A DNA stretch of 64,000 bases from an uncultured Pseudomonadota bacterium (GCA_963805995.1 CAWDWL010000005.1:479509-543508), one strand, 5' to 3'. Counted from the stretch's first letter, positions 16,700 to 39,060 are shown. Numbers and translations are program-made. Notes: generated from the sequence alone by a model not told the origin.

Positions 16700-17130
16700 T
16701 TGCTATCAATTCTGACTCCCTTTCCTTGCCCAGGAACCGTCGATAACTGTTTGCAGCTTGAAAGCCGGACGCCTGGCATTGGCGGGCGACGACCTGATTA
16801 ATGCCCTCTCCCTCACCAAAGACGATCGATAACTGGCTGGTGCCGTGCAATGCAGCGGTATTCGTATGCAAAGGCCTGGGTTTGTACCCTCTCCCTTTAT
16901 TAGTAAGGCAGAGGGTGAGGATTTCCGGACGCATCAAGAAACACCAAACGCACTGGCGCAGAAGTGATTCCGCATGCCTGACACATCGTTGCAGGCCCGC
17001 CTGCACCCTCTCCCTGGTCAGGGAGAGGGCATCAATCAAAGCCCTGCCAGGCAATTACAGGCCTCGAACCTTCAAGCTCGAGCACTTTATCGTCACCTCT
17101 CGGAGAAGGGGAGGGAGCAGAATCTCCGGG
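16700..17130. repeat. interspersed REP-like repeat cluster, copy A, with CCCTCTCC/GGAGAGGG hairpins and the core GCATGCCTGACACATCGTTGCAGGCCCGCCTGCACCCTCTCCC
   Basis: Direct sequence similarity to 31740-32090 and 38795-38935. It lies in the intergenic space between the Gfo/Idh/MocA and LLM genes. Confidence 0.6.
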
Positions 17131-18018
17131 CTAGATCAGATACTTGCGCGCCAGGTCTTCGAGCTCGCGCTCCCAGGTCTTGGGCCCCAGCGCCATGCCG
17201 TCGCGGTAAATCGCCTCGGTGCCGACGACGATCCGATGGCATCCCGCCTCTTCATACTCGGCATAGGTCGCTTTGACCTCGGGGCGCTCGTAGGGCCGGA
17301 ACATGGTGATGTCCATCTTGCTGAAATCGCGTCCGGCTTCCTGGCACATCTTCTTCAACGTCACCAGGTTCTCGGCCAGTTGCTTGGCCTTAATCCGCAG
17401 CGGCATCCATCCGTCACCGATCGTAACCACGTCCTTGAGCACCTTATCCGGCCCCTGCGCTCCCCCGTTGGCGCCAATCAGCACCGGCGGATGAGGTTTT
17501 TGTGCCGGCTTGGGGAAACTCTTGACCGCCGGGAACTTGATGTATTTGCCATCGAAACTGGACTCGGGTTTGGTCCACAGTTCCTTCATCGCGCGGATGC
17601 ACTCGCGCGTGACCGCCCAGCGTTTGCGGAACTCCACTCCCATGATTTCGGTTTCGTCGGCCAGCCAGCCTGCGCCGATACCGAACATGAATCTGCCGCC
17701 GGAGAAGTAGTCAACCGTGGCGACTACTTTGGCCAGAACCAGGGGGTTGTGCTCGGGAACCAGGCAGATTCCGGTGATCAACTTGATCTTGCTGGTCACG
17801 CCCGCAGCGATGCCAAGCAGGACGAATGGATCGGGCATGCGCGAGTACCAGCCCGGAATCTCGCCCCCACCCGCAGGGTAAGGAGTTTTGTGCGCGACCG
17901 GAATAAATGCGTGTTCGGGAACGATGAGGGCGTCGAAGCCCAGGGCCTCGGCCTTGCGGAACACATCCACAGGTGGTGCGGTCAGATCACTTACAAACGC
18001 CGATACACCGACTTTCAT
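17131..18018 (-). CDS. luciferase-like monooxygenase (LLM) class flavin/F420-dependent oxidoreductase
   Basis: LLM fold signature (MKVGVSAF...AEALGFDALIVPEH...). Confidence 0.7.
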   Translation of the reverse strand: MKVGVSAFVSDLTAPPVDVFRKAEALGFDALIVPEHAFIPVAHKTPYPAGGGEIPGWYSRMPDPFVLLGIAAGVTSKIKLITGICLVPEHNPLVLAKVVATVDYFSGGRFMFGIGAGWLADETEIMGVEFRKRWAVTRECIRAMKELWTKPESSFDGKYIKFPAVKSFPKPAQKPHPPVLIGANGGAQGPDKVLKDVVTIGDGWMPLRIKAKQLAENLVTLKKMCQEAGRDFSKMDITMFRPYERPEVKATYAEYEEAGCHRIVVGTEAIYRDGMALGPKTWERELEDLARKYLI

Positions 18019-18141
18019 CTCGATTTCCTCCAGTCTTCCTCAAGCACTGACTTCTCATAGCGCAAACACCGCCGTTCAGACCAACCCTTGCGTGCCATCC
18101 ACGACGACCAGGCGCGAAAAATTCGGGGTGCGGTGCGGCGC

Positions 18142-18618
18142 TCAGCTGGTTTTGAAGAACTCTTCCGCATAGACGAAACGGCCCACACCCGCCGCACGAG
18201 CGCATTGCTCGTCCACATCCTGATCGCCCACCAGCGTTGATGCGGCCAGATCGACCCCGTGGACCGCCGCCAATTCCTGGACCATCCCGGGCGCCGGCTT
18301 GCGGCATCCGCATCCGTCTTCGGGGCCGTGCGGGCAGATTTCCCAGGCGGTCAGGATACCGCCGAGTTGGCGATCGAGTTCGGCAATCGCCGTCTCGACC
18401 TGTTCGCGGGTGAAGCGGCCGCGTTTGATGCCACGCTGGTTGGTAACGATGAAGATAAGATTGTCGCGCAGCGGACGGAGCTTTTCGGCGACTCCGGGGA
18501 GCAGTTCGATCTTGACCTTACCGCGCGCGTCGGCCGGGAGGTCGCGATTTTCATCGAGCTTCACCAAGGTGCCGCCCAAATCGCAAAACAGTCCAACATT
18601 TCCGGCATGATCCGCCAT
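18142..18618 (-). CDS. HAD-IIIA family phosphatase (GmhB / histidinol-phosphatase-like)
   Basis: DLGGTL motif I, IFIVTNQ motif II, and the Zn-binding CPHGPEDGCGCRKP signature of the GmhB/HisB-N subfamily. Confidence 0.65.
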   Translation of the reverse strand: MADHAGNVGLFCDLGGTLVKLDENRDLPADARGKVKIELLPGVAEKLRPLRDNLIFIVTNQRGIKRGRFTREQVETAIAELDRQLGGILTAWEICPHGPEDGCGCRKPAPGMVQELAAVHGVDLAASTLVGDQDVDEQCARAAGVGRFVYAEEFFKTS

Positions 18619-18626
18619 GATTCGAA

Positions 18627-19991
18627 CTACTCCTCACGCCAATTGCAATGGTCGCGCACGTAGGTGAAAACCTCGTCGAGTATCGCCGCTCCGGCCTCCG
18701 CCTGCGCTTCCGTGATGACCAGCGGGGGATTGATCCGAATGCGCGGGAAATAGCTCATGGTCAGCAAGCCGCGCTTGAGCGCTTCCTTGAAGACCACCTC
18801 CATGATCCGGCGGCTCAGTTCGCGCCGGGTGTGGCGATCGCGCACCAGATCGATTCCGATCATCAGGCCGCGGCCGCGCACGTCGCCGACGAACTCGAAC
18901 TTTTCCTTCAGCGCCAGCAGACGCGCGAGCAGGGTCGCGCCCACTGTGCGCGAATTTTCGACCAGATGCTCCTCCTGGATACTGCGCAGCGTCTGGCCCA
19001 CCGCCACCGCGGCCAATGGATTGCCGCCGTAGCTGGATGATGACGCGCTGGGTTTGGAGAATGGTTTGGCTTGCGCCACCTCTTCTCTCAGCAGCACCCC
19101 CGACACCGGGAAGCCTGAGCCCATCCCCTTGCCAACGGTCATGATGTCGGGCTGCACGCCGGTATGCTCGACGCCCCACATCTTTCCGGTGCGCCCGAAC
19201 CCGGTGATCATCTCGTCGGCAATCAGCACGGCGTCGTTTTCCCGGGCGATCTCCTTGACCGCGGGCAGGAACTCATCGGGCGGGATCACGTTGCCCGCAG
19301 TGCCCTGAAACGGCTCTATCAACACCGCGGCGATCGCGCCGCCCGAACTGTTCTTGATCTGCTTGCGGGCGAAGTCCACGCAAAACATGCCGCATTGCGG
19401 ATATTCCAATTTGAATGGACAGCGGTAGCAGTCGGCGTAGGGCACCAGATGCTGGCCGCCTGGGAGGGGGCCATAGCCTTGCTTGGACTCGTCACCGATA
19501 AGGCCGATCACCCCACCGGTCTTGCCGTGGAAGCCGCCCCAAAAGCCAACCACCTCATGCTTGCCGGTAAAGGAGCGCGCCGCGCGCAAAGCCGCCTCGA
19601 CCGCCTCGGCGCCGCCGCTGTAAAGGTGAAAACGTTTGAGCCCCGGCGGCGCCGCTTCGGCGATCGTCTTGAACGCGTCGGCCCGCTCGGGCGTAGCAAA
19701 GGTCCCGACCATCAGCCGTGCCGCCTGATCGGCCAAGGCCTTGGACAGCACCGGATGGCCATGGCCGAGGCTGGCTACCGCCACCCCGGCAAAGAAATCC
19801 AGGTAAACGTTACCGTCGACGTCAGTCAGGGTGGCGCCGTCACCATGATCGAAGGCGACTCCGGCCAGCGAGGAAATGCGCTGGCGTCCCGGAGCCAGAT
19901 AGCGCTCCTCCTGGTCGAACACGGCGCGCGACTGCGGTCCGGGAACCTGGGTCTTAATCGAAGGAAGTTTGCTCTTCTTTTCTTTCATCAA
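18627..19991 (-). CDS. class III pyridoxal-phosphate-dependent aminotransferase (acetylornithine/ornithine aminotransferase-like)
   Basis: Aminotransferase class III fold and length (454 aa), with a conserved Lys region. Confidence 0.8.
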   Translation of the reverse strand: MMKEKKSKLPSIKTQVPGPQSRAVFDQEERYLAPGRQRISSLAGVAFDHGDGATLTDVDGNVYLDFFAGVAVASLGHGHPVLSKALADQAARLMVGTFATPERADAFKTIAEAAPPGLKRFHLYSGGAEAVEAALRAARSFTGKHEVVGFWGGFHGKTGGVIGLIGDESKQGYGPLPGGQHLVPYADCYRCPFKLEYPQCGMFCVDFARKQIKNSSGGAIAAVLIEPFQGTAGNVIPPDEFLPAVKEIARENDAVLIADEMITGFGRTGKMWGVEHTGVQPDIMTVGKGMGSGFPVSGVLLREEVAQAKPFSKPSASSSSYGGNPLAAVAVGQTLRSIQEEHLVENSRTVGATLLARLLALKEKFEFVGDVRGRGLMIGIDLVRDRHTRRELSRRIMEVVFKEALKRGLLTMSYFPRIRINPPLVITEAQAEAGAAILDEVFTYVRDHCNWREE

Positions 19992-20008
19992 TGTAATCTG
20001 TCAGCGCC

Positions 20009-20833
20009 CTATCTCGTGGAGCGCATGGCCAGCAGGTCGAGCGTCCGGCGGGCGATGGCGGCGGCGGCCGGCGCCCTGACCAGCTCAAAGCTGGGCCAAT
20101 CGTTAAAGTCCACCAGTTTGAATTGTTCACGCTCGATTATTGCGTCACCGCCCCACACTTCCAATCCCAACGCGGCGGCAGCGGACTGCGCCGCGCGATG
20201 CAGTCGCGTACGCGTCGCCGCGTTGACGCCGTCTGCGTCGGCGACGCTGAAATAGTCCGTGTCCGTCACGCCATAAAACTTGACCACCCTGCCCTCCACC
20301 TCCTGCTGCAGATAGGCAAGGTTGATACCCCTGGCGGCGAAGTCCTCGAGGATCGGCACGAGTGCTTCGTGGTTGGCGGCGCGGCGCACGTCGCCGGCCG
20401 ACAGCGCGTGCAAGTCGCCACGCTTGACGTAGATTCCCCGACGCGGATCAAGCGCGCCCAGTGCGCCAAGATCAACCGCCGCGGAGGTCTCGACCAGGAT
20501 TCCTTCGGGAACCGGCACCGCCGCCTCCTTCAGGACCCGTCCCAAGCGGTCACGGTAACATGAGCGGATCGCCTGGGGCGAATTGATCACCAGCGCACCG
20601 GCCGCCTGCTCCTGAGCCAAGCGCCGCAGGGCCTCCTCGCTCTGGCACATCGCCATGATCAGGGCGCAATCTGGACCATCATAGGCGATCAACTCCGCCG
20701 GATTGACGGCTGCCGTGCTGATACCATGTTCGGACAGCCGCGCCAGCACCAGGTCCAGGATAGCGGCGTCGGCGCCGACCTTGCCGGGGGAGAATTCGCT
20801 TTCCCGATATACGCCCAGCGCGTGGACCATCAC
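20009..20833 (-). CDS. ATP-grasp family ligase (RimK-like), substrate unknown
   Basis: ATP-grasp sub-motifs: YVKRGDLHALSAGDV, EDFAARGINLAYLQQEVEGRVVKFYGV, and GLEVWGGDAIIEREQFKLVDFNDWP. Confidence 0.5.
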   Translation of the reverse strand: MMVHALGVYRESEFSPGKVGADAAILDLVLARLSEHGISTAAVNPAELIAYDGPDCALIMAMCQSEEALRRLAQEQAAGALVINSPQAIRSCYRDRLGRVLKEAAVPVPEGILVETSAAVDLGALGALDPRRGIYVKRGDLHALSAGDVRRAANHEALVPILEDFAARGINLAYLQQEVEGRVVKFYGVTDTDYFSVADADGVNAATRTRLHRAAQSAAAALGLEVWGGDAIIEREQFKLVDFNDWPSFELVRAPAAAAIARRTLDLLAMRSTR

Positions 20834-21591
20834 ACGTCACCTTTGCCGGGGCGCGCCGCGCGATGCTCCCGCTCCAGCATCCGGCGCGCCGCGTCGAGGT
20901 CCGCGGCGACGTCGATATCAACCACGCCGCTCAACTCGATCGCGTGGAGACGAACGCCCCATTCAACCAGTCCGCCAAGGAATTGCCGCAGCGCCGACAG
21001 CTTCAACTCACGCGCCCGGGTGCGAAAGGCAAAAATCGAGGTGGGAAGAAAATAGACCCCTGCGGTCACCAGTGAAGACTGCTCCACCCCGACCTTGCGT
21101 ATCACGCCGCCAGGTTCGACCTCGATAAACAGTGGGCGTTCGTCACCGCGCCATCGCACAACAGCCAGGGCGCCATCGGCCGCACTATCCGACTCTGACC
21201 CGGTCCGCGCAACCGCCTGCTGCGCGAAACGCTTCATTTCACCGCGGGCCAGAACCGCGTCAACCGTGGCGGCAAGAAACCCACGACCGGTCAGATGATC
21301 GGCAAGTTGAAACAGGGTCTCCATCGAATTGGGAGTGTCACGCACTACCAGCTTGAGTTGGCTGGGGAGGAGGATTGCGTCGCGCTCGATCAGCGATGCG
21401 GTTTCGGAGTTGACCACCGCGATAACGCGCTCAACTCCGGCTTCCAGCAGGGCGCGGGTCTGGCGCAGCAATAACGGTTCGTCGTCGAGCTTGACCAGCG
21501 GCTTGGGCAGATCGGGCCCTTGAGCCCGCAACCGCTCACCGTGCCCCGCCGCCAGAATCGCTCCTTCAATCCGATCCAAGACAAATCTCAA
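20830..21591 (-). CDS. sugar-/alcohol-phosphate nucleotidyltransferase (MobA/GlmU-like NTP_transferase)
   Basis: AILAAGHGERL ... KPLVKLDDEPLL signature. It overlaps the ATP-grasp start by 4 bp. Confidence 0.65.
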   Translation of the reverse strand: MRFVLDRIEGAILAAGHGERLRAQGPDLPKPLVKLDDEPLLLRQTRALLEAGVERVIAVVNSETASLIERDAILLPSQLKLVVRDTPNSMETLFQLADHLTGRGFLAATVDAVLARGEMKRFAQQAVARTGSESDSAADGALAVVRWRGDERPLFIEVEPGGVIRKVGVEQSSLVTAGVYFLPTSIFAFRTRARELKLSALRQFLGGLVEWGVRLHAIELSGVVDIDVAADLDAARRMLEREHRAARPGKGDV

Positions 21592-22303
21592 CTAATTGAT
21601 GAAGGTCGTGCACCACAAAGTCGGCGCCACGCTCCAAGGCCGCAGTGTACTCTACGGACTCAGGCGCTAACCACACGGTACGCAACCCGAGCTGGTGCGC
21701 CGGAATGCAATCCTTGCCCAGGGAGTCGCCGATCATCGCGGTCTCATACGGACGGGCATCCATCCGCGCAAGTGCCGCCAGGTAAATCGCCGGGTCCGGC
21801 TTGAAGACGCCGACCCGTGAAGAGTCGATTGCCGCCTGGACGAAAGGCGCCAGGCCCGCTTCTTCCAGGACCGCCTGGAGATTGCCATAAAAATTCGACA
21901 CCACGCCGATCTTGAAGCTCGATGCCAGCTTAGACAGCGTCGCCCGGCTGTGCTTGAAACCGGCCGCGCTCCCGGCGCAAAAACCGCCCGCTATCAGTCC
22001 CGCGGCGTCGCGAAGAGTCGGCGGCACCCGATCCGGCAGATGTTCGAGAAGATAGTCGATTTGCCAGTTCACGAGTTCGTCAAGGAGCTGGCGCAGCCCA
22101 TAGGCGTAAATGCGCTCGCCGGCCTGATAACCGCGGCGGGTGGCGTAGGAGAAGGCCGGGTCGAGCTCCTCGCGGGTCAGGTCGAGTCCTGCGGCCTGGC
22201 GATAAAGAGTCAGAAACCGGTCAAGCCAATGCGCCGCCGGCAAGTCGAGAGTGCCTCCGAAATCGAACAGCAGCGTGCCGATCTTTTTCCACGAAATTCG
22301 CAC
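21566..22303 (-). CDS. HAD superfamily hydrolase (subfamily IA-like)
   Basis: FDFGGTL motif I and HAD core motifs. It is the first gene of the 5-gene minus-strand operon. Confidence 0.6.
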   Translation of the reverse strand: MRISWKKIGTLLFDFGGTLDLPAAHWLDRFLTLYRQAAGLDLTREELDPAFSYATRRGYQAGERIYAYGLRQLLDELVNWQIDYLLEHLPDRVPPTLRDAAGLIAGGFCAGSAAGFKHSRATLSKLASSFKIGVVSNFYGNLQAVLEEAGLAPFVQAAIDSSRVGVFKPDPAIYLAALARMDARPYETAMIGDSLGKDCIPAHQLGLRTVWLAPESVEYTAALERGADFVVHDLHQLVEICLGSD

Positions 22304-22542
22304 GTAAACCAGGACCTCAACAAGGCGTCGCCAATGCGATCAGAATTTACGGATGAGATGCGGTCGAAGCCAGTTCCACTTTAAAACTATTTTTGCGGCG
22401 GCACGTGCTTGGCTCACCGCAGTTCCGACGGCGCTTGGTCGCGCCGGAAAATACCATTGTTTTGAAGGGTAAATCAGGGGTATCTTGCCTTGCCTGACCG
22501 ATTGGTCTAGTACATTGCCCTGAGCCGACCTGAAAAAAGAAA

Positions 22543-23778
22543 GTGATTTTGGATTCCAGTTCAGCCAGCCAGGAAAAGGCCCCCGTAGTGTTGATCGACG
22601 CTCCCAGCCGTGGCGCAGACCTGATTTTTGGGCGCCCGCTGCTGGAACGAATGATCAGGGTGTGCGAGCGCGCCGGGGTCGCCAACTTCTTCCTGAAATG
22701 CCCAACCCAGGAGCAGACGCGGTATAGTGCTGCTTTGGGCCGGTTCGCCGGCGACCCGCGGGTGCATTTTGTCGGCTCGTTCGATGAAGTCAAAAACCAT
22801 CTGAACGGGTCGTCCGACTCCGGCCAGGGAGTCGCGCTCAAAGGGAACATCGTCTTTTCTCTTTCGCAGTTGCGCGACCTGCTCACGCAACAGGCGAACA
22901 GCGCGGCCGAGGTAATCAAACTTCCCAGTGCCAACGGGGATCCGGCAGCGTCGGTGTCAGTTGGACCGCTAAGCGATTTGGTGGGCGCCGATGGCCGGCA
23001 ACCGGGAGCGAACGTTTTCAGCCGGCTCGACGGGCTCCCATTCGCGCTCAATGGGCATCCCGAAGACTGTCAAACCGCGGAACTCGCGATTGCCAGCACC
23101 TTGCGCCATGATACCGCCCGTACCGACGGCCTGATGGCGCGGATTTTCGACCGCAAGCTCTCGTGGCGGCTCAGCTACCGGTTAGCCAATACCTCAATTA
23201 TGCCCAACCAGGTGACGCTGGCTAACACCGCCCTGGGCTTCCTGATCGCCTGGATGTTCGCGCAACAGCCCAGCTATTGGATTCCCTTACTGGCGGCGGC
23301 GCTGTTCGTAATCTCAATCACGATCGACGGCGTTGACGGGGAACTGGCCCGGCTCAAGTTGGCGGAGACCAAGGCGGGGGCGCGGCTGGACGCGATCACC
23401 GACAACATCGTCCATATCGCGATTTTTCTCGGAATCGGCCTCGGCAGTTATCGCGTCGCGCACAATCCCGCCTACGTCTATGTCTTAATCGCGTTTTTGC
23501 TCGGATTCGGATGTTGCGCAATTTCGGTCAATCGGGCGATGAGCGTTTCGGCGCAGGGGGCGGAGACTTTCATCCGCAAAGTCGATCGCATGACCGGACG
23601 CGATTTCGCGTACCTGGTGTTGTTTTTGGCACTGATTAATCGGCTGCACTATTTCATAATCGGCGCGGCAATTGGCACTTATCTCTTCGCGGGTGGGTTG
23701 TGGTGGTTAACCAACAAGTGGACCCGCGAGAACGCCGCGCTTCTAACCGGTGGGGATCGGCTTGCGGAGGGCCTATGA
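22543..23778 (+). CDS. fusion protein with an N-terminal degenerate nucleotidyltransferase-like domain and a C-terminal CDP-alcohol phosphatidyltransferase
   Basis: C-terminal DGVDGELARLK...GARLDAITD CDP-OH-P-transferase motif on a multi-transmembrane segment. N-terminal VVLIDAPSRGADLIFGRPLLERMI is MobA-like but lacks GxGxR. Confidence 0.7.
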   Translation: MILDSSSASQEKAPVVLIDAPSRGADLIFGRPLLERMIRVCERAGVANFFLKCPTQEQTRYSAALGRFAGDPRVHFVGSFDEVKNHLNGSSDSGQGVALKGNIVFSLSQLRDLLTQQANSAAEVIKLPSANGDPAASVSVGPLSDLVGADGRQPGANVFSRLDGLPFALNGHPEDCQTAELAIASTLRHDTARTDGLMARIFDRKLSWRLSYRLANTSIMPNQVTLANTALGFLIAWMFAQQPSYWIPLLAAALFVISITIDGVDGELARLKLAETKAGARLDAITDNIVHIAIFLGIGLGSYRVAHNPAYVYVLIAFLLGFGCCAISVNRAMSVSAQGAETFIRKVDRMTGRDFAYLVLFLALINRLHYFIIGAAIGTYLFAGGLWWLTNKWTRENAALLTGGDRLAEGL

Positions 23779-25100: not shown

Positions 25101-25133
25101 GCCGTCTGAGCCGATTCTCTCCCGGTCTTTTTT

Positions 25134-25168
25134 CCTCTCCCACATTGGTTCGTGGGAGAGGTTTTTTT
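25134..25168 (+). terminator. rho-independent terminator: stem CCTCTCCCAC / GTGGGAGAGG, 8-nt loop, T7 run
   Basis: Perfect 10-bp GC-rich inverted repeat followed by TTTTTTT, 34 bp after the radical SAM stop. Confidence 0.65.
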
Positions 25169-25272
25169 GGTCGCGAAAGCTCGCTCCGGTCCTGCCCTTC
25201 CCGATTCTCGGGCGGGAGAAGAAGGCCAGGGACCTCGCCTCCCCATCCTGCTGATTCGCCAAGCAACCGATA

Positions 25273-25281
25273 TGCTATAGT
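25273..25281 (+). promoter_or_regulatory. candidate extended -10 promoter element (TGcTATAGT)
   Basis: TGnTATAGT lies about 80 bp upstream of the lipoprotein ATG. There is no good -35 element. Confidence 0.3.
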
Positions 25282-25362
25282 GCGTGGCGACGCCGGTTGA
25301 TGTGGCGTCTCCAGGATTATGCGCGCGGTTGCCGTTTTGCCGGTGGCGCGACCGGAGTGACG

Positions 25363-26034
25363 ATGGGCGCCCACGATTTGCGCAAATGGTCTTTACTCAT
25401 TGTGGCTTTGGTCCTTTCCGCTTGCGGAATTGCATGGCCGCCGCTGAAGGAAACTCCCAAGGTCGTACCCACCCCGATTGATGGCGAGTTTTCGGTGGTG
25501 ACGCAGGCCGAACATCCAGTCGGGGACCTGATTCCGGTTTACGTTTCAATCGCCAACGGCACCGATGAAGGCCGGACGGTCCATCCGAGCCAGGTCTTTG
25601 CGCTCAACGAGTACGGTCAAAGAGTCGCTCCGGTTCCACCAACCGAAGCGGCGCGCCAGGCGGGTAACGCAGGCGCGCTGAAGGCCGCCTTGGCGAGTTC
25701 CGCCGCCGGTGGAGCGGCTGAAGGAGCATTCGGCGCGGCAGTTGGGGCGCTCGCCGGTCTCGCCTTGGGCGGAGTGGGTCCGGGGGCTGCCGTGGGAGGT
25801 GCGGTGGGCGCCGCTCAAGGCGCATTGTGGAGCGCTCCGATGGGCCAGGCACAAGCGCAAGGCCAGGCCAATGCGCAAATCCAGGGGCTGGCACTGGGCG
25901 ACAGCGAAGTGCGCAAGGACTTCACCATCAGCGGCTATGTCTTCTTCCCCAAGGGCGCCTACAAAAACGTGGAGATGCTGGTGGTCAACAACGAGACCGG
26001 CTCGACCGAGACCGTAACCCTGCCCTGGCGCTGA
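25363..26034 (+). CDS. lipoprotein with a glycine-zipper segment
   Basis: Signal peptide plus lipobox (LLIVALVLSAC|G) and a Gly/Ala-rich GxxxG repeat (GAFGAAVGALAGLALGGVGPGAAVGGAVGAAQGA). Confidence 0.5.
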   Translation: MGAHDLRKWSLLIVALVLSACGIAWPPLKETPKVVPTPIDGEFSVVTQAEHPVGDLIPVYVSIANGTDEGRTVHPSQVFALNEYGQRVAPVPPTEAARQAGNAGALKAALASSAAGGAAEGAFGAAVGALAGLALGGVGPGAAVGGAVGAAQGALWSAPMGQAQAQGQANAQIQGLALGDSEVRKDFTISGYVFFPKGAYKNVEMLVVNNETGSTETVTLPWR

Positions 26035-30174: not shown

Positions 30175-31050
30175 TTGAGGCTGACCGTGGCTGAAAGAAG
30201 ACATCCCGACTGGATCAAGGTCCGTGCTCCGACCTCGCCGGAGTTCTTCAAGACCAAGGAACTGCTCAAGCAGATGCGTCTGCACACGGTGTGTCAGGAG
30301 GCGTGCTGCCCGAATATCAGCGAATGCTTTTCCCATCGCACGGCCACTTTCATGCTGATGGGTGACGTGTGCACACGCAACTGCCCGTACTGCGCCGTGG
30401 CGCATGGCAAGGCGCGGACGCTGGACCCGCAGGAACCGTTGCGCGTCGCGCAAGCGGCGGCGCAACTCGGCCTTGCCCATGTGGTGGTCACCTCGGTCGA
30501 TCGCGATGATCTGGCCGACGGCGGCGCCGCCCACTTCGCCGCGACCGCCCGCGCAATCAAGCAACTCGCCCCCGCCACCCGCGTCGAAGTGCTGGTGCCC
30601 GACTTTCAAGGCGTGCATGCGAGCGTTGAAGAAGTCGTGCGGGCTCCAGTGGATATCTACAACCACAATATCGAAACGGTGCCGCGGCTGTACAAAATCG
30701 CGCGCCCCGGCGGGCGCTACCCGCGCTCATTGGAGGTGCTGCGCCACGCCAAGGACACGGCGCGCGGACTGTCCCGCGGCCTGCTCACCAAGGCCGGTAT
30801 CATGCTTGGCCTGGGTGAAGAGATCGACGAAGTGATGGCGGTGCTCAGCGACCTGCGCGAGGTCGAATGCGACATCATCACGCTGGGCCAGTACCTCAGG
30901 CCGTCCAAGGAGCATCTCGAAGTGGTCCGCTACGTGCCGCCGGCGGAGTTCGCCCAACTGCGCGAACGCGCGATGGCGCTGGGTTTTCGTCACGTCGAAT
31001 CCGGCCCGTTGGTCCGCAGCTCCTACCACGCCTGGGAGCACGTCAATTAG
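30175..31050 (+). CDS. lipA: lipoyl synthase
   Basis: Two Fe-S motifs: CCPNISEC and CTRNCPYC. Confidence 0.9.
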   Translation: MRLTVAERRHPDWIKVRAPTSPEFFKTKELLKQMRLHTVCQEACCPNISECFSHRTATFMLMGDVCTRNCPYCAVAHGKARTLDPQEPLRVAQAAAQLGLAHVVVTSVDRDDLADGGAAHFAATARAIKQLAPATRVEVLVPDFQGVHASVEEVVRAPVDIYNHNIETVPRLYKIARPGGRYPRSLEVLRHAKDTARGLSRGLLTKAGIMLGLGEEIDEVMAVLSDLREVECDIITLGQYLRPSKEHLEVVRYVPPAEFAQLRERAMALGFRHVESGPLVRSSYHAWEHVN

Positions 31051-31200
31051 CCGCAAAGCGAAAATCATTGAACCTGTTTACCGCACAAACGCATTGGGGC
31101 AGAGGCTTCTTCTGTCAAAGCGGGAATAGTTTGACGGGTCAGGAGCACATGCGCATTGGGGCAGAGGCTCTTTGCTGTCATCTCTCTTTATCCTAGCCCT
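31051..31200. repeat. two tandem partial copies (about 85 bp period) of the 5' module of the MITE-like element (AAAGCGAAAAT ... GCACAAACGCATTGGGGCAGAGGC)
   Basis: Direct alignment to 31203-31290 and 43458-43540. Confidence 0.5.
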
Positions 31201-31202
31201 AA

Positions 31203-31372
31203 AAGCGAAAATAACTATACGTCCTGAGCGCACGAACACATTGGCGCAGAGCGCCTTTCTGTCCCCTCTCCTTATCTTAGGAGAGGGCGAGGGAGAGGTT
31301 ACACGCTACGACCCTTGATACACATTTCGCCCTCGGCCCGGCATTTCGCCAACAATCTACCTGAATTATTTT
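31203..31372. mobile_element. MITE-like element copy A (about 170 bp) with 13-bp terminal inverted repeats AAGCGAAAATAAY and an internal CCCTCTCC...GGAGAGGG hairpin
   Basis: 5' end AAAAGCGAAAATAACT and 3' end AATTATTTTCGCTTCAG are inverted complements. The internal sequence is about 85% identical to copy B. Confidence 0.55.
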
Positions 31373-31379
31373 CGCTTCA

Positions 31380-32100
31380 GGGTTAGGTTTCTGGTTCTTT
31401 TTCTATTCCCTCCCCTTGTGAGAGTGTCGATAAACTCCACAACCAACCTCGCCCGCGGCTGCGGACTTGGGTACCGCAGGCGCACGCCGGGAGAGGTCGG
31501 CGCGCGATTTGCGCCAGCAAGTCGCGTGACGGGTGAGGGTGCAGGCGGGCTGCAACTGTGTTACGCTACGACCATTCTCCTTCTGCGCCAATGCGTTTGG
31601 CGTTACTTGATGCGTCCAGAAACCCTCCCCTCACCTCTCCCTTATAAATAAAGGGAGAGGTGCAATCCCAAGTCTCTTGATGTTACTAATACCGCTGCAC
31701 TGAGCGGCACCAGCAATTTGTCGACAGTCGCCCTGTGAGACATTCGAAAAATTGTTTGCGGCTTGAAAGTCCGATGCAAATAATTGCCTTACCAGGATCT
31801 GATTGATAGTCTCTCCCCGACCGAGGAGAGGGTCGGGCGCGGGTGGAGAGTGCTGGCGGGCCTGCAGATGCGTGACGCATGCAGGATCTCCTTGTGCCCC
31901 AGCGTGTTTGATCTTACTTGAGGTGTATCAGGACTCTCATCACCTGCCACCACTGAACAGTGGTAGAGGGAAGACGCGCACCTCCTCTTAATAATAGGAT
32001 TGCCCGCTCGGGGTCATCGCCCTTAGCTCGCTTCTTGACACTCTCCATATCCGATCAGGGAAGGGAACAGAATTTAGTCGGCGCGCGGATAAGAAATCTC
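31380..32100. repeat. REP-like repeat thicket, copy B, with fragments in both orientations
   Basis: Contains TTGTTTGCGGCTTGAAAGTCCG, an inverted core GGGTGGAGAGTGCTGGCGGGCCTGCAGATGCGTGACGCATGCAGG, and GGGAAGGGAACAGAATTTAGTCG, all matching 16730-17130. Confidence 0.5.
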
Positions 32101-32355
32101 ACTTTCTGAAAATTTAGTGTAAACGATCTGGCGCGCGGCTACGTCTGAAGTCCGAGCGTTTTTCGGTACGCCGGCTACGAATGCTCGGGCCTCCATTTCC
32201 TGATCATTCAGGGCGCGGATTCATAGCGAGAACTGCGCGGTAAGCTGGCGTAATCAATCCTTCAGATGGAATAGACCGGTTGCGACTTAATTTCTTCTAA
32301 GCTAGCGCAACTGGTCTTTACCATCATTAACAACCCCTGAAGGGAGACTCAGTGC

Positions 32356-33753
32356 ATGTCTAAACCGATACTCGCGGCTTGTTTCGCAACTGTTCTGATA
32401 ATGGCGGATACGGCCCACGCCGGTCCGGCCAATCGCCACCGGCTATCCCACCCGGTTCCGGTGAACTTAAGTGGTTTCGGAGCGCCGCTCCGCGCCATCG
32501 TGAACAATCCAGACGACCTGCAGATTTTCGCCACGGGTCAATCCAACTTCAAAGAGATCGATGAGGTGCCCCAAGTCGGGCCGGTTCTTAACGGGGTCTC
32601 CTGCGCCGGCTGCCATTCTCAGCCATCAATCGGTGGCGCAGGGCTGTTTATCAACGAGATCAGGGTTCGCGACAATGTCGCGCCAGGCCCGGTTCACATC
32701 TTCGCGGTTGATAATATGTTGCGTGGGGGACCGCAGTCACAAAACGGCACGACTATTTTCGCCAACGGCATGCACGCGGAACCGCTGGGATGCCAGATAA
32801 CCGCACCGGGATGCCAACTCTCGGCTTGCCAAAAGGAAGAGGCCGCGCGAACCACCTTCGCCTGGAATCTGCCGGAGTGCGATCCGACCAGCAAGAGCTT
32901 CACCAGCGGCGCCAATTGCGCATCCGGACGCGCAGCCACGCCCACATTCGGTTTGGGTCTGGTCGAAGCGGTGGCGGACCAAACTCTAACCGACCTTGCT
33001 CAAAGTGAACCGGCGGCGGTGCGCGGCACCGCGAGGATGGTCACGGAGGACGGGCAATCGCGTGTGGCGCGTTTTGGCTGGAAGGACGATCATGCGACGC
33101 TGCGCGCCTTCGCCGCGGACGCATACCTCAACGAGATGGGCATTACCAACCCCGACGCGCCGATCGAAGTGAGTTCTTGCGCTCTGGGTCAAAAGCAATT
33201 CGGTGTTCTGCTGCAAACCGACGACGGCATCGAAGACCCCACGGATCCGGATGGGCGCGCGGATATCGATCGCTTTGCGGATTTCATGCGGGCGTTGGAT
33301 GCGCCGCCGGTGCTCGAGCGAAACTTGTCATCTCGCAGCGGGGCGCAGCTGTTCCAGCAAGCCGGTTGCGCGGACTGCCACACGCCGAGCCTTACGACCG
33401 ATACCAATCCCGCGTCATTTGTCCCCACTACCACGGGCGGGATCCCGATCAGTGCGACGCTCAATCTGGCGCTGGCCAGCCATACCTTCCATCCATATTC
33501 CGATTTCCTGCTGCACGACATGGGTTCGCTGGGCGACGGCATCACCTCGGACTCCGCGGGACCTACCATGATGCGCACGGTGCCGCTGTGGGGAATCCGC
33601 GCGAAGTCGGTCTATTTGCACGACGGGCGGGCGCGCGACCTCCCTACCGCAATCACGCTGCATGACGGACAGGGCAAGGCCGCATCCGAAGCGTTTGGGG
33701 CCCTTAGCGCCGAGCAACAACAGGACCTGCTTAACTTCCTCGGCACGATTTAG
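32356..33753 (+). CDS. DUF1111-family di-heme cytochrome c (putative peroxidase / thiol oxidoreductase)
   Basis: Signal peptide, two CxxCH motifs (CAGCHS, CADCHT), and a C-terminal PLWG...YLHDGR...HDGQG MauG/CCP-like motif. Confidence 0.7.
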   Translation: MSKPILAACFATVLIMADTAHAGPANRHRLSHPVPVNLSGFGAPLRAIVNNPDDLQIFATGQSNFKEIDEVPQVGPVLNGVSCAGCHSQPSIGGAGLFINEIRVRDNVAPGPVHIFAVDNMLRGGPQSQNGTTIFANGMHAEPLGCQITAPGCQLSACQKEEAARTTFAWNLPECDPTSKSFTSGANCASGRAATPTFGLGLVEAVADQTLTDLAQSEPAAVRGTARMVTEDGQSRVARFGWKDDHATLRAFAADAYLNEMGITNPDAPIEVSSCALGQKQFGVLLQTDDGIEDPTDPDGRADIDRFADFMRALDAPPVLERNLSSRSGAQLFQQAGCADCHTPSLTTDTNPASFVPTTTGGIPISATLNLALASHTFHPYSDFLLHDMGSLGDGITSDSAGPTMMRTVPLWGIRAKSVYLHDGRARDLPTAITLHDGQGKAASEAFGALSAEQQQDLLNFLGTI

Positions 33754-33956
33754 GCTGGATTGGCCGACTGCCAAAGAAGGCTGCGGCCTGTGACCATCAG
33801 GTAAACCAGAATCATCCGGCGGCGAACTTGCCGCCGGATGATTCTGAAGTTGGTTCGCGCCGATCGCGACAACTCGGTTGCCTGTATGGTTTGGTTGGGT
33901 TACCCTGACACTTAATCAGGAGATTACCCAGCCTCCCTGACAGTGCGTGCAAAATC

Positions 33957-34301
33957 GTGCTTGTTGAGCTAAGAGCCATCGCACATGCCGGCCACGGCCG
34001 GCGAACTGTAGCGGCCGTAGCAGCCAGTCTGCTGCTGACGGCTCAACTGCTCATCGCCGCGCATGTTCATCCGGGGCTGCTCATCAAGAGTGTCTCCGAC
34101 CGCACGCATATGGCCGCTGTCAGCGAGGCCGCCTGCCCGGTCTGCGCACTTCAGGTTCATGCTCCAGGCAGCGCGAACGCGGTATTCCTGTTGATCATCC
34201 CGTTGCTTAGCGAAGCATTCGTCGCGACTGCGAGACGGTCGCGGCTGCTTGGTTTGGCGAAGCCTCAGCTCTTCGGCCGCGCTCCTCCGGCGTCGGCCTG
34301 A
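33957..34301 (+). CDS. small His/Cys-rich protein of uncertain status (possibly a DUF2946-like periplasmic metal-binding protein)
   Basis: 114-aa ORF with AHAGHGRR ... HVHPG ... ACPVCALQVHAPG. Only the genomic context (next to a TonB-dependent receptor) supports it. Confidence 0.2.
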   Translation: MLVELRAIAHAGHGRRTVAAVAASLLLTAQLLIAAHVHPGLLIKSVSDRTHMAAVSEAACPVCALQVHAPGSANAVFLLIIPLLSEAFVATARRSRLLGLAKPQLFGRAPPASA

Positions 34302-34434
34302 TCTCTCCATTTCCCGGAAATTTTCAGTTCCACACACGCGTGTCACGACCGCGTTGCTCATTGCGCGCCGATAAGCCGCGATACGCAAGGCGCGTCGCCC
34401 ACGCCGGAGAGTCAACGAGGTTGAGGAGTTTACG

Positions 34435-36806
34435 ATGCGGAGGATTTTTGTCCCGATTTTGGGATTGTGTGTGATTGCGGGTCTCGTGGGAGGCTCATCG
34501 GCCACTAGCGCCGCTAATAACGCGCAGCCGCAACGCCTGTGGCGGGTACGGTTCAGGATTCGTTGGGCCGTCCGGTGGCGGGCGCGGAGGTCAGCTTGCA
34601 GGCCTCCAACGGTAGGACCGTCGCGAAAGACCCGCAGCGATGCGAAGGGCCGCTTTTCATTTGCTACAGTCAATCCCGGGAATATACGCGGTGACCGCAA
34701 ACAAACAGTCATTCAAGCCCGCGATCAAGATTGCGGCGGTAGAGGCTGGAAGGCCCGCGGAATTGACGCTGGCGATGGCGTCCGAACAGGCGCTTAAGCA
34801 TGACGGTGGTCGCCAAGCGGCTGGACGTGGCGCGCAACAGTCTTTCGCCGCAAACCGGCGGCAGCGTCTATCGCTTCAATGAGCAGTCGATTCATGATCT
34901 GCCGCAGGGCAGCAACACGCCGCTCAACCAGGTGCTCTTGCAGGCGCCGGGCGTAGCGCAGGATTCCTTCGGCCAAATCCACGTGCGCGGCGAGCATGCG
35001 GATCTCCAATACCGAATCAACGGCGTTCAGCTTCCGGAGGGCATCACCGGCTTTGGCCAGGTGCTAAGCCCGCGCTTCGCGCAAAGCCTCAATCTTCTGA
35101 CCGGCGCGCTGCCCGCCGAATACGGTTACCGGACCGCGGGGGTGGTGGACATCCACTCCAAGAGCGGACTGTCGCTTGACGGGGGCGACCTGGACATGTA
35201 CGGCGGCCAGCACAGCACCTTGCAGCCGAGCTTCGAGCTGGGCGGATCGAAGGACAAGCTGGACTACTTCTTCAGCGGCCAGTACCTCCAGAGTCAATTG
35301 GGCGTGGAGCCGCCGACGCCCGGTCCCAGCGCGTACCACGATCAGACCTATCAGGGTCAGGCGTTCAGCTATCTGTCCTATTTCCTTAACCCGACCACAC
35401 GTTTGAGTTTGATCAGCGGCTTCGCGCTAAATCACTTCCAGATTCCGGACAATCCCAATCAGCCGCAGGTCTTCCAGCTTGCGGGCGCGCCATTTTATCC
35501 CTCGGCCAACATCAACGAGAACCAGCTGGAGCAGAATTACTTCGGCGTCCTGTCACTGCAGGGAACGATCGGGGCCAAGTTCGATTATCAACTGTCGGCA
35601 TTCAGCCGTTATTCGACGCTTTCGTTTTACCCGGACGAGATAGGCGATCTGATCTACAACGGCGCCGCTTCGCGGATTTTCCGCAGTAGCTGGTCCAACG
35701 GCCTGCAAGGCGACAGCAGCTATCGCCTCGACGATCAGCATACGATCAGAGCCGGTTTTTGGTTCAGCGGCGAACGGGCGGAAATCGACAATCATGAAAC
35801 GGTTTTTCCCGCCAACCCTGACGGGAGCCAAGCCAGCGAAACGCCGCTTCCACCGATCGTCGACAACCGCGCGATAACCGCGTGGCTCTACGGCATTTAT
35901 ATCCAGGACGAATGGCGTCCGACCGAACAGATCACGATCAACTATGGCACGCGCTTCGACCTTTATGACGGTATCGTGCGCGCCGACCAGGCCAGTCCGC
36001 GGGTCGGCCTGGTCTATAAGCCGTTCAAGCGCACGACGCTTCACGCGGCCTACGCGCGCTACTTCGCGCCACCCCCGACCGAGCTGGTAACCGTCGAAGC
36101 GGTGAACAAATTTGCCGGCACCACCGGCGCGCCACCAACCCCCTATAGCGGCAATCCCTCGCCCGAGCGCTCGCATTACTTCGACGTCGGAGCGCTCCAG
36201 GAACTGCTCCCGGGCCTCCACGTAGGCATCGACGCCTACTACAAGAAGTCCACTGATCTGATTGACGAAGGGCAATTCGGTCCCGCGATCATCTTTTCAA
36301 CATTTAACTATCGAAAGGGCCGAAACTATGGCGTCGAGTTCACCGGCTCATATAACCATAAAAATCTCACTGCATATGCGAACTTTGCGTATGCAGTCGC
36401 CCAGGGAACGCAAGTCGAGTCGGGACAGTTCAATTTCACACCTGCTGAGCTAGCCTACATCGCCAACCACTACGTCTTCCTGGACCACGATCAGACCTTC
36501 ACCTCGTCGGCAGGCGCGGCTTACCAATGGAAGGGATTCAACTTTCTCCTTGATGGCCTGTATCAGAGCGGATTGCGCGAGGGTTTTGCCAACACCCGCA
36601 ACCTGCCTTACTACATCCAGGTCAATGTCGGCGCCACCCGGGAGTTCACGGTGCCCAAGGTGGGCGACCTGCAAGCCCGGATATCGGTGCTTAATCTGTT
36701 CGATCGCACCTATCAAATTCGCGGCGGCAGCGGGATTGGCGTGTTTGCGCCCCAGTTCGGACCCCGGCGCGCACTGTACGCCGGCCTGAAATGGGAGATA
36801 CCATTT
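34435..36806 (+). CDS. TonB-dependent receptor with an N-terminal carboxypeptidase-regulatory-like domain; the N-terminal 360 bp is split over three reading frames and there is no in-frame stop before exbB
   Basis: Signal peptide MRRIFVPILGLCVIAGLVGG (frame 1). CarbopepD segments AGTVQDSLGRPVAGAEVSLQASNGRTVAK (frame 0), TRSDAKGRFSFATVNPG (frame 1) and IYAVTANKQSFKPAIKIAAVEAGRPAELTLAMAS (frame 2). Plug plus barrel from ATG 34800, ending ...GRRALYAGLKWEIPF. Confidence 0.6.
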
Positions 36807-36887
36807 CTCAAGGCGCCACCCGCAATTGGCGCAAACGACCAACTAAACCGAGGGTATCAGCGGATTTTCCTCATTAATGGAGTTGAT

Positions 36888-37562
36888 ATGCATGCACTAC
36901 AAGCAGCGTGGGATACGCTCCGGTACGGCGGGGCGATGGTTTACCCGTTGCTGGTTCTCGGGGTTCTCGCGATAGCCATCATCCTGGATCGTTGCGTGGC
37001 GTACTTTCGATGTTTGCGGCTGCCGGCCGCGCTGGCCAACCTGGTCGAGACCTACGGCTTTTCCTGGGATGAACTCGAAAAGCAGCTTGAACAGCTCGGA
37101 CCCGGCAATGCCTACGGACGGTTCCTGAAGGTAATCGCCGACAATCGAACCGACCCCGCGTGGTGGGTGGAGTCGCGCGCCGGGGATGAAGCCGGCCTCA
37201 TCGAGAAAGTTCTCAATCGCGGACTATGGCTGCTGGAAACCGTGGTCACCGCGGCGCCCCTGATGGGCCTGCTCGGCACCATCACCGGGATGATGGCGGC
37301 ATTCAACGTAATCGGCAGCTCAGGTCTGGTCGCGCCGCATGAGGTGACGGCGGGCGTGGCCCAGGCCTTGATCGCGACCGCGCTGGGCCTGTTCATCGCG
37401 CTGATCTCGCTGTTCGGATTCAACTTCTTCTCGCGGATGCAATCTCACGCGATGGACCGCATGGAACGGCTGGGCTCGCGCCTGGTCGATCATATCCGCC
37501 TGGATCAGGAAAACGCGGCCACCGATCCCGAATCGGCGGTGCGGCGCGTGCAATCGCGATGA
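36888..37562 (+). CDS. exbB: MotA/TolQ/ExbB proton-channel protein
   Basis: Three-transmembrane MotA/ExbB core (LMGLLGTITGMMAAFNVI ... ALIATALGLFIALISLFGFNFF). Own GGAG Shine-Dalgarno plus ATG at 36888. It is in frame with the upstream TonB-dependent receptor ORF. Confidence 0.75.
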   Translation: MHALQAAWDTLRYGGAMVYPLLVLGVLAIAIILDRCVAYFRCLRLPAALANLVETYGFSWDELEKQLEQLGPGNAYGRFLKVIADNRTDPAWWVESRAGDEAGLIEKVLNRGLWLLETVVTAAPLMGLLGTITGMMAAFNVIGSSGLVAPHEVTAGVAQALIATALGLFIALISLFGFNFFSRMQSHAMDRMERLGSRLVDHIRLDQENAATDPESAVRRVQSR

Positions 37563-37572
37563 GGACGCATCG

Positions 37573-37974
37573 ATGAAACTCAAGCGGGCGCGCGGATACC
37601 GGCGCGGACGAATCGAAATCATCCCCATGATCGACGTCATGTTCTTCCTGCTGGTGACTTTCATGCTGGCGTCGCTGGCGATGCAAAGCCTTAACTCAGT
37701 GACGGTAAACCTGCCCAAGGGACAAGCCGAAGCCATCAAACATCAGGAGCCGGTAACCCTGACCGTAACCAAGGACCAGCGACTGTTCCTGGACAAAACG
37801 CCGGTGTCGCTCGACCGCCTCGCGTTTACCCTTAAGCCGATGCTCCAGGAGCATGACCCGGGGTTGGTGGTTAACGCCGATACCGCCGCGCCGGAGGGCA
37901 TCGTGGTCCAGGCGATGCTGCAGGCGCGCCGCGCCGGGGTCGAGCATTTCCAGATTGCGGTCAAGCGCGAATGA
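37573..37974 (+). CDS. exbD: ExbD/TolR biopolymer transport protein
   Basis: IIPMIDVMFFLLVTFML transmembrane helix plus an ExbD periplasmic domain. Confidence 0.8.
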   Translation: MKLKRARGYRRGRIEIIPMIDVMFFLLVTFMLASLAMQSLNSVTVNLPKGQAEAIKHQEPVTLTVTKDQRLFLDKTPVSLDRLAFTLKPMLQEHDPGLVVNADTAAPEGIVVQAMLQARRAGVEHFQIAVKRE

Positions 37975-38774
37975 ACGCTAGCCATCACCTGCGCTTTGCC
38001 GAAGACTTCGACGAGCCGTGGCGCCGGCTGCCCTGGGTCATCCTCGCCGCGCTGCTGAGTTGGATTTTGCTGCTCGGCGGTTTCGCCAAGCTGCTCGAAC
38101 GCAAACCCGCGCCCGAGGCTCCGCCAACCACCATCGAAGCCCGCATCATCGAGATGCCTCCCCCCGCCGGTTTGCAGGGCGGCGGCTCCGCTGGCGGGAC
38201 GCCGGCGGTCGCGCATCCCGCGCCCATCGTGCGTCCCGTGCCCAAGCCGGTGCATGTGGCGAAACTCAAGCCGATTCATCATGTCCACAAGGTCAAGGCG
38301 GCATCGGTGATTACGGAACCTCTCTCGCCCTTCGGCACCGCCAAGCACGTCGAGCATCCCGAACCGGCGGCACCTGCAATTGCGTCGAAGGGACCGTCGG
38401 GCGGAGTCAGTAAGAGCCGCGGCCGCACCGCAGGTGCGGAAGGCGGCGGTGAGGGTGGCATCGGCGGCGGGACGGGGTCAGGCAGCGGCGTCGGGATTGG
38501 CAGTGACAGCGCCGGCGCCAGAGCCATGTTTGCGCCAACCCCCACGATACCCGACGACCTGCGGGAAGGCGCATTCTCGACGATGGCGGTGGCGCACTTC
38601 AGGGTCTCCCCAGAGGGCAACGTCGAGGTGACGCTAATCAAGCCAACGCCGAATCCACGGCTCAATCAGATCCTGCTCGACACGCTCAAACAGTGGAAGT
38701 TCTTCCCCGCCATGAAAAACGGCATCGCAATCGCCTCCGAGTTCGAAGTCCGCATCCCCATCGCCGTGCAATAG
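37971..38774 (+). CDS. tonB: TonB-family energy transducer
   Basis: N-terminal transmembrane anchor, a Pro-rich spacer (PAPEAPPTT...PVPKPV), and a C-terminal TonB_C domain (FRVSPEGNVEVTLIKPTPNPRLNQILLDTLKQWKFFP). Confidence 0.7.
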   Translation: MNASHHLRFAEDFDEPWRRLPWVILAALLSWILLLGGFAKLLERKPAPEAPPTTIEARIIEMPPPAGLQGGGSAGGTPAVAHPAPIVRPVPKPVHVAKLKPIHHVHKVKAASVITEPLSPFGTAKHVEHPEPAAPAIASKGPSGGVSKSRGRTAGAEGGGEGGIGGGTGSGSGVGIGSDSAGARAMFAPTPTIPDDLREGAFSTMAVAHFRVSPEGNVEVTLIKPTPNPRLNQILLDTLKQWKFFPAMKNGIAIASEFEVRIPIAVQ

Positions 38775-38794
38775 TATGGCTGGGAGGCGCGGGT

Positions 38795-39060
38795 TTGTTC
38801 CCTCTCCCACGTTTAGTTGTGGGAGAGGACGAGGGTTCTGATACCCTCAAGTAAGATAAATGCACTGGCGCGCAGCGAGATCCCGCATGCGTGACACACC
38901 TTTGCAGGCCCGCCTGCACCCTCTCCCGGGCGCCAAAATTTTGAGGTCTGGCGCTGAACAGCAAGCGCCAGACGCTAAGGACCCTCACCCGGCACTCGCA
39001 GACTCGCGCCGGCCTCTCCCCTCCGGGAGAGGCAGTCCCGGGACGCGTCATGCGAAAATC
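38795..39060. repeat. REP-like repeat, copy C (hairpin CCCTCTCCCAC/GTGGGAGAGG plus the core GCATGCGTGACACACCTTTGCAGGCCCGCCTGCACCCTCTCCC)
   Basis: About 85% identical to 16855-17025. The hairpin stem is identical to the terminator stem at 25134. Confidence 0.55.

Follow-up and report, generated by a model that had tools for sequence, protein, structure and literature searches.

Mosaic intergenic repeats in an uncultured Binataceae bacterium, a miniature transposable element among them, and their probable use as an IS110 target

The stretch analysed here (GCA_963805995.1 CAWDWL010000005.1:479509-543508; the window, 64 kb long with a G+C content of 60.9%) carries palindrome-rich repeats in several of its intergenic spacers. 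One spacer separates an F420-type luciferase-like oxidoreductase gene (17131-18018, minus strand) from a GFO/IDH/MocA oxidoreductase gene (minus strand), a co-directional pair; a second separates lipA (30175-31050) from a di-haem oxidoreductase gene (32356-33753, plus strand), again co-directional; and a third lies between a TonB-like gene (plus strand) and an epoxide hydrolase gene (minus strand), which converge. An earlier account of this DNA, made without database searches (the sequence-only reading), had placed the repeats between genes and mostly at operon ends. The intergenic location holds for every copy, and none was seen inside coding sequence, the placement which that account had named as telling against it. 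The preference for operon ends is not established, as only the third spacer has convergent genes on its two sides. The nearest relatives of LipA are Candidatus Binataceae metagenome-assembled genomes (MAGs; best identity 89%), and by this protein similarity we take the host to be an uncultured soil bacterium of the Binataceae. An alphaproteobacterial, Bradyrhizobium-like origin with the mosaic elements (RIME) or Bjr small RNAs (sRNAs) of such genomes was rejected in view of these LipA relatives.

Self-comparison of the window by blastn, together with multiple alignment and nhmmer profile search, resolved a first family of repeats (family 1), a unit of ~150 nt present in four copies in these three spacers with a pairwise identity of ~76%:

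16872-17019, plus strand: family-1 unit A (nhmmer E=1e-37, and alignments)
31525-31676, minus strand: family-1 unit B (nhmmer E=8e-36); a common pre-core reaches 31729
31836-31986, minus strand: family-1 unit C (nhmmer E=2e-33, and alignment)
38784-38930, plus strand: family-1 unit D (nhmmer E=1e-33), beginning 10 nt past the stop codon of the TonB-like gene

In the blastn self-comparison, 16821-17014 aligned with 31729-31531 (77% identity, E=1e-32), 31837-31985 with 38931-38783 (77% identity, E=2e-22) and 16872-17017 with 38785-38930 (76% identity, E=4e-21). Judged by these alignments, it is confirmed that the three large regions are homologous and their similarity non-random. The count of at least three large related copies was therefore sound, with four units now recognized in three loci and the 31380-32100 region holding two of them, both on the minus strand. 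Two finer points of the sequence-only reading needed revision. The 25-mer TGCAGGCCCGCCTGCACCCTCTCCC, described as common to the copies, has exact matches only at 16990 and 38903, in units A and D (none in 100 shuffles), and in units B and C its reverse complement has diverged, by 2 and 4 differences, with an indel in one of the two. The 45-bp core is real and is simply the best-conserved 3′ part of the longer ~150-nt unit; units A and D are 90% identical over 52 nt.

Four parts make up a family-1 unit. The first is hairpin 1, with an invariant base, CCCTCTCCC, and a variable but compensated top; the second begins with the motif GGGTGAGGGTTTC and continues with ~60 nt that are conserved and mostly unpaired; the third is the small hairpin TGCAGG-CCCG-CCTGCA; and the fourth is a terminal CCCTCTCCC, able to pair back to GGGTGAGGG. 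In unit A, hairpin 1 is CCCTCTCCCTT..AAGGCAGAGGG, followed by the conserved middle, the small hairpin and the CCCTCTCCC end. The copies differ among themselves by 1-2-nt indels in the alignments, and protein coding was rejected on account of these indels and because the overlapping open reading frames (ORFs) are antisense or of low quality. The sequence-only reading had proposed RNA fold prediction; whole-unit folds have two small hairpins in common and no common global fold (z-scores of -0.7 to -4.2), and RNAalifold found almost no covariation outside hairpin 1. Rfam 15 gave no gathering-level match in the window, and the repeat regions had no relevant hit even at E<=1. Because the copies differ by short indels, lack an Rfam match and have no common global fold, we regard the repeats as non-coding.

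Every repeat module is built on a CCCTCTCC(C)/GGGAGAGG palindrome. CCCTCTCC itself has 11 matches in the window against 2.1 expected, and the hairpin CCTCTCC-N3-14-GGAGAGG occurs seven times against none in shuffles, always between genes. These CCTCTCC-based hairpins have stems of 8-13 bp and a density of ~8 per 64 kb. Their palindromy has been kept despite sequence change, since the inner stem pairs change yet stay paired (CAC/GTG, CTG/CAG, CTT/AAG, CGT/ACG and T/A).

The family-1 units sit within larger composites, or beside further modules, as follows:

16705-17127, plus strand: composite element A, made of an end module, an X module, the pre-core, a family-1 unit, an inverted X module and an end module
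16745-16828 (plus strand) and 17005-17092 (minus strand): the X modules of element A, which bracket unit A and are inverted to each other (nhmmer)
31390-32075, minus strand: the B/C composite, made of units B and C, an X module between them (31745-31839, plus strand) and end modules
38930-38999, plus strand: Y module, 3′ of unit D, which recurs in the soil-metagenome contig L083 (nhmmer)
39012-39033, plus strand: a further hairpin after the Y module, CCTCTCCCC-TCCG-GGAGAGG

Element A is a long imperfect inverted repeat, with a self-inverted alignment over 16709-17123 (60% identity, E=3e-11), and is without a clear target duplication; the B/C composite has TTAG on both outer sides (31383-31386 and 32076-32079). 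End modules with GTCGATAA recur in element A, in the B/C composite and in contigs L083, L081 and L091, and the X, Y and end modules and the core recur in varied orders and orientations. Together with the palindrome count (seven against none), this module shuffling agrees with the original description of the repeats as interspersed, mosaic, present in both orientations and similar to repetitive extragenic palindromic (REP) sequences.

The inventory of the sequence-only reading had overlooked a second family (family 2), which accounts for 31054-31386 and 43457-43643 and has another full copy, with matching ends, ~1 kb upstream of the window (L093). The copies within the window are:

31197-31382, plus strand: family-2 copy with ends CCCTAAAAGCGAAAATAA and TTATTTTCGCTTCAGGG, flanked by CTAG (31193-31196) and TTAG (31383-31386) (nhmmer E=4e-63)
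43457-43643, plus strand: family-2 copy of 187 nt, with a TTAG duplication at 43453-43456 and 43644-43647
31054-31196, plus strand: two tandem half-copies of the family-2 left arm (repeat search, nhmmer)

The two full copies are 79% identical (31197-31382 against 43460-43647, self-blastn); the former shares the second spacer with units B and C and has a central hairpin, CCCTCTCC-TTATCTTA-GGAGAGGG, and the latter is located after a sigma-54 activator gene. Family 2 ends in terminal inverted repeats (TIRs) of ~20 nt (in the 43457 copy, CCTAAAGCGAAAATAATTCTG against the reverse complement of the right end, GCTCAAAGCGAGAATAATTCTG). At the 43457 copy the occupied site reads caaTTAG/CCTAAAGCGAAAATAATTCTG...CAGAATTATTCTCGCTTTGAGC/TTAGaagg, and the empty site, caaTTAGagg with a single TTAG, is found in two assemblies (strains L086 and L087); a further copy, in contig L097, is flanked by CTAG on both sides. 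Under ISfinder conventions, IS5-group elements typically produce such a 4-bp duplication of a YTAR target. The elements measure 186-187 nt, below the ~400-bp size of miniature inverted-repeat transposable elements (MITEs), and contain no ORF of at least 60 amino acids. Family 2 is demonstrably a MITE by every feature that could be checked, the matching features being those listed in PMC3184786. Its ends, duplication and empty site are directly visible, and for movement it would presumably depend on a transposase supplied in trans from another locus.

Comparison with relatives showed how quickly the contents of these spacers change. We compared three near-identical strain contigs (L086-L088), which cover 29-52 kb of the window, and recovered the orthologue of the spacer that element A occupies from three other metagenomes (L097, L098 and L099). 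Relative to the window, the strain contigs share a large indel within the second spacer:

31286-31418: 133 nt present in the window and missing in L086-L088 (megablast, L088 sequence)

Both ends of this indel fall within GGAGAG/GAGAG arms; clean microhomology was rejected, as one base is strictly common and the GAGAG arms are 2 nt out of register. Unit D of the window differs from that of the sister strains by 11 mismatches in 149 nt (91% identity), its flanks diverge by ~1%, and of the two versions that of the window resembles the consensus and has perfect stems. This clustered divergence, together with the consensus-like window version, indicates gene conversion or replacement of unit D. In L097, where the protein flanking the element-A spacer is 99% identical, element A is missing, and a partial family-1 unit is fused to a reversed family-2 copy, the whole bounded by CTAG...CTAG. 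The L099 spacer (flanking protein 84% identical) holds a family-2 half and a reversed family-1 unit, and that of L098 (85%) is 254 nt long with an unrelated palindrome and neither family. Synteny with the closest MAG breaks exactly at the lipA stop codon, where the repeat cluster starts. Spacer contents thus come and go among relatives, and the repeats are therefore not conserved regulators of their neighbours. The earlier suggestion of a recombination hotspot gains support from the presence and absence of the MITE, the 133-nt indel, the divergence of unit D, the replacement of the element-A spacer and an IS110 insertion in the core of unit B.

That insertion is a 1.3-kb element of the IS110 family of insertion sequences (ISs), found in strain L088 within the conserved core of unit B. 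The insertion point is at 31536-31537, an AG that reads CT on the minus strand, within the core GCCTGCACC-CT-CACCC; the IS has DEDD_Tnp_IS110 and Transposase_20 domains, its gene is frameshifted in the L088 assembly, and no copy of it lies in the window. We fetched close homologues (73-92% identity) from other contigs and compared six independent insertions. All junctions have a CT core, the right flank is CTCCC or CACCC in 6/6, and at least four of the six lie inside family-1 units, where they interrupt either hairpin 1 or the 3′ core. The IS left end, ~200 nt, is predicted to fold as an RNA of two stem-loops. Loop 1 carries GGGAGAG on its 3′ side (GGGTGAG in the L088 copy), which is exactly reverse-complementary to the CT and following 5 nt of the respective target. 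This right-target guide matches at 7/7 positions in five insertions and at 5/5 in the sixth (targets CTCTCCC or CTCACCC), and in L088 a T/A switch in the guide compensates for the CACCC target. Loop 2 holds ACAGUCGC, the left-donor guide, identical to the IS right end. IS110-family elements are known to target REP sequences (PMC1525189), and the guide logic of a bridge RNA has been described for IS621 (PMC11208160); the present element has the same arrangement and adds a case to this targeting of REPs. With six insertions displaying complementarity of guide and target, from which we infer recombinase activity, the C-rich arms of the repeats (CC-CT-CTCCC or CC-CT-CACCC) are probably the preferred site of an IS110 element of the bridge-RNA type, which would make the repeats landing pads away from genes. 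The converse possibility, that the repeats derive from IS110 ends, was rejected, as the two have no similarity. In contig L089 (1610-4320), an IS110 copy directly adjoins another insertion sequence, whose ORF has weak HTH_29 and rve_3 matches, which suggests a pile-up of mobile elements at that site.

Taken together, these data favour, with a probability of roughly 0.7, a lineage-specific, mosaic repeat system of a Binataceae sub-lineage, resembling MITEs and bacterial interspersed mosaic elements (BIMEs), that also serves as an IS110 landing pad. Under this reading, non-coding, non-autonomous modules would colonise intergenic spacers and be reshuffled there. Their basic brick would be a palindrome of REP type whose base, (C)CCTCTCC(C)/(G)GGAGAGG(G), is invariant and whose top covaries freely, and family 1 would be packaged in composites of 0.3-0.7 kb with long imperfect inverted ends formed by the X and end modules. 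For the host, the consequences would be hypervariable spacers, gene conversion between copies and local rearrangement, and any effect on transcripts would be secondary. The multicopy state, mosaicism and replacement between relatives of family 1 are shown by the comparisons above, and family 1 fits the description of a mosaic or REP cluster and is at most a putative MITE.

Several observations weigh against this reading. No transposase gene is present in the window or fetched flanks, ~81 kb in all, which is the extent over which the genome was read. Neither a target-site duplication nor an empty site was found for family 1 in the window and fetched relatives, and the complementarity of its inverted ends reaches only ~60%; transposition of this family is accordingly something we can only infer; the orthologous spacers are occupied by other elements, and there is therefore no family-1 empty site to read. 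The left-target guide of the IS matches at only 4-6 of 8 positions. The exact 22-nt family-1 core is absent from 185,579 GTDB representative genomes, and a further ~25 loci of Binataceae/Binatia gave no family-1 copy, so that this may be a family of low copy number. Finally, the strain contigs seem to hold indel errors, as the same genes are split in some and intact in others, and small strain indels are therefore unreliable; the large polymorphisms were seen repeatedly, in two to three assemblies. In L086 there are many split genes that L087 has intact, for example those for the TonB-dependent receptor and the sigma-54 activator.

Beyond the GTDB genomes, the exact core is also absent from viral contigs, and the ~17 kb of DNA around the window has no family-1 copy. 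When JGI/ENA metagenome contigs were scanned with a 21-mer there were five hits, and family-1 units of ~70-77% identity are present in three of them (two near-identical). Independent soil-metagenome contigs with family-1 copies are L081, L083, L091 (two copies), L099 and L097 (a partial one), and further copies were found beside IS copies and in the orthologous spacer. Contig L083 (JGI contig Ga0137377_10427597) has at 150-620, beside its family-1 composite, a degenerate ORF for DUF559, a Vsr-like endonuclease (213-533, minus strand), with near-perfect inverted repeats of ~70 nt around it. This gene was rejected as an autonomous parent, being present only in L083 and in neither the window nor the other loci. 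The CCTCTCC hairpin is more widespread than family 1 and has other arrangements in other Binataceae/Binatia MAG loci; the non-Binatia loci that were fetched have only a few CTCTCC..GGAGAG matches, mostly with 20-nt loops.

A more ambitious version of the preferred reading joins the repeats and IS110 into a co-evolving pair, in which the repeats persist as safe-harbour landing pads and the shuffling, inversions and deletions are the work of the bridge recombinase at pseudo-sites (CT cores in CCCTCTCCC or CCCTCACCC arms). We consider this unlikely. The 133-nt indel, with its ends in GAGAG arms, would be a possible example of such a rearrangement and, if the proposal is true, an RNA-guided recombinase would be the architect of a repeat family and not a mere visitor.

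The same palindrome also occurs apart from the family-1 and family-2 elements:

25134-25161, plus strand: solo hairpin CCTCTCCCAC..GTGGGAGAGG, with a 10-bp stem, a T7 tail and an upstream T-run, 34 nt past a radical-SAM gene
59237-59275, minus strand: solo fragment, an imperfect CTCCC..GGGAG palindrome together with 14 nt that match the family-1 core exactly (59262-59275)

The sequence-only reading had treated both as fragments of the large copies; 59262-59275 indeed holds a piece of the core, and 25134 has only the stem in common with them. As it had stated, 25134 and 38801 have the same stem, CCTCTCCCAC/GTGGGAGAGG, without any difference, with TTTTTTT after the former and no T-run after the latter. 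Near the solo core fragment, three tandem copies of CGATCGGAGTAGCACCC (59152-59212) lie upstream of a dienelactone-hydrolase-like gene (59368-60108, plus strand) and may be a regulator-binding array.

The solo hairpin at 25134 bears on an alternative in which the hairpins are primarily transcript-end signals that would act as intrinsic terminators or shield 3′ ends from exonucleases and would be repeated since they serve many genes. Such roles have been shown for some E. coli REPs. The hairpin at 25134, with its 10-bp stem and T7 tail just downstream of a stop codon, is a good candidate for an intrinsic terminator built from the same palindrome; the start of unit D so close to a stop codon between convergent genes, and a related hairpin after a gene end in MAG locus L001, point the same way. 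The terminator role proposed earlier is thus plausible for the solo hairpin and unsupported for the large copies. A T-run follows only 1/8 CTCTCC hairpins in the window, no hairpin of the family-1 or family-2 copies is among those with a T-run, and the three large regions have no more terminator-like or promoter-like sites than shuffled sequence leads one to expect. Relative to flanking transcription, units A, B and C are antisense and unit D is sense. The ~100-nt conserved non-palindromic stretch would be superfluous for a terminator, and the orthologous spacer holds unrelated content in close relatives. Given the shuffle-level signals, the rare T-runs, the inconsistent orientation and the lack of a common fold or an Rfam match, the large copies are unlikely to serve specifically as terminators or sRNAs, and we think it improbable that transcript-end signalling is the primary role of the hairpins.

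Alternatively, the CCCTCTCC palindromes could be true REPs or REPINs (REP doublets forming hairpins) mobilised by a RAYT (REP-associated tyrosine transposase) encoded elsewhere, with families 1 and 2 as BIME-like clusters around them. They are short, GC-rich, imperfect, extragenic palindromes in both orientations, and inverted pairs exist in other Binataceae loci; they are also IS110 targets, like the REPs of Pseudomonas and E. coli (PMC1525189, PMC11208160). Against this stand the absence of a RAYT gene from the ~81 kb of window and fetched flanks, the inverted ends and target duplication of family 2, which are MITE signatures that REPINs lack, and the length of the conserved family-1 unit, far greater than that of a REP doublet. 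We therefore consider this origin doubtful and prefer the mosaic of MITE- and BIME-like modules set out above. Two other Binataceae MAGs (L011 7280-7620; L012 940-1260) have differing inverted pairs of CCTCTCC hairpins around 130-200 nt, which look like further REPIN- or MITE-like elements on the same palindrome.

That family-1 units are paralogous genes for small regulatory RNAs is highly improbable: ~100 nt of largely unpaired sequence and two hairpins are conserved within and between genomes, and against this role stand the lack of an Rfam match even at E<=1, of promoter-like or terminator-like signals, of a consistent global fold and of nearly any covariation outside hairpin 1, as well as units that are truncated, nested or interrupted by an IS without apparent cost and whose presence differs between near-identical strains.

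Some features of the surrounding DNA deserve mention. The GFO/IDH/MocA gene beside element A apparently starts at a CTG preceded by GAGGAA (~16600-16660, minus strand); ORF calling with ATG, GTG and TTG starts shortens it to 288 amino acids, and the same short call is made in contig L097. A stretch of ~4 kb of the window (43650-47700) is without long ORFs and has small ones only, including antitoxin candidates similar to VapB/PSK_trans_fac (43907-44161, minus strand) and to RHH proteins (45288-45560, minus strand). No tRNA or rRNA was found in this ORF-poor stretch of 43.6-47.7 kb. It is a strain-variable island of small genes, because the content between 47-nt direct repeats (44286-44332 and 47651-47697) varies between the window and the sister strains.

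The general interest of these findings is modest, and their use lies mainly in a catalogue entry and a data set of bridge RNAs and targets. They record small mobile and mosaic DNA shaping intergenic regions in a phylum known only from metagenomes and flag spacers that are prone to unstable assemblies and gene calls. They also provide naturally occurring pairs of target and guide, a compensatory change among them, for a bridge-RNA IS110 element outside the model Proteobacteria.

Among known systems, those nearest to the repeats in function and structure are the REP/BIME clusters of E. coli, the Rhizobium-specific intergenic mosaic elements (RIME) and the pneumococcal BOX elements, each a mosaic of palindromic modules. 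RIME and BOX elements are lineage-restricted, intergenic and made of a few palindromic sub-units. The repeats described here have a similar modular mosaic build, but the sequences and host phylum are unrelated and the module order is far more variable here. Family 2 is most like the bacterial MITEs derived from IS5-group elements (and like Correia, ERIC and RUP) in its length of ~187 nt, lack of an ORF, TIRs of ~20 nt, YTAR duplication, presence or absence between strains and stable internal hairpin, whereas family 1 differs from bacterial MITEs in having no recognisable duplication and in its long, degenerate inverted ends. Like the REPs and BIMEs of E. coli, the repeats are extragenic, GC-rich, imperfect palindromes that form mosaics with other motifs in both orientations and are linked to recombination and IS insertion (PMC3184786, PMC1525189); they have no sequence similarity to those elements, and their conserved unit is ~150 nt long compared with 35-40 nt in E. 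coli. The IS differs from IS621, ISPpu9 and ISPpu10 in its target, CC-CT-CTCCC, in its partial left-target complementarity and in its uncultured Binataceae host, where it is known from sequence alone. It is otherwise like them a DEDD-type IS without terminal inverted repeats, with a CT core, a two-loop left-end RNA, a right-target guide complementary to its target and a left-donor guide identical to its right end, and the targets are likewise repeated palindromes (PMC11208160, PMC1525189). We conclude that this is a new example of a known sort of bacterial repeat DNA and that its mechanism is not new.

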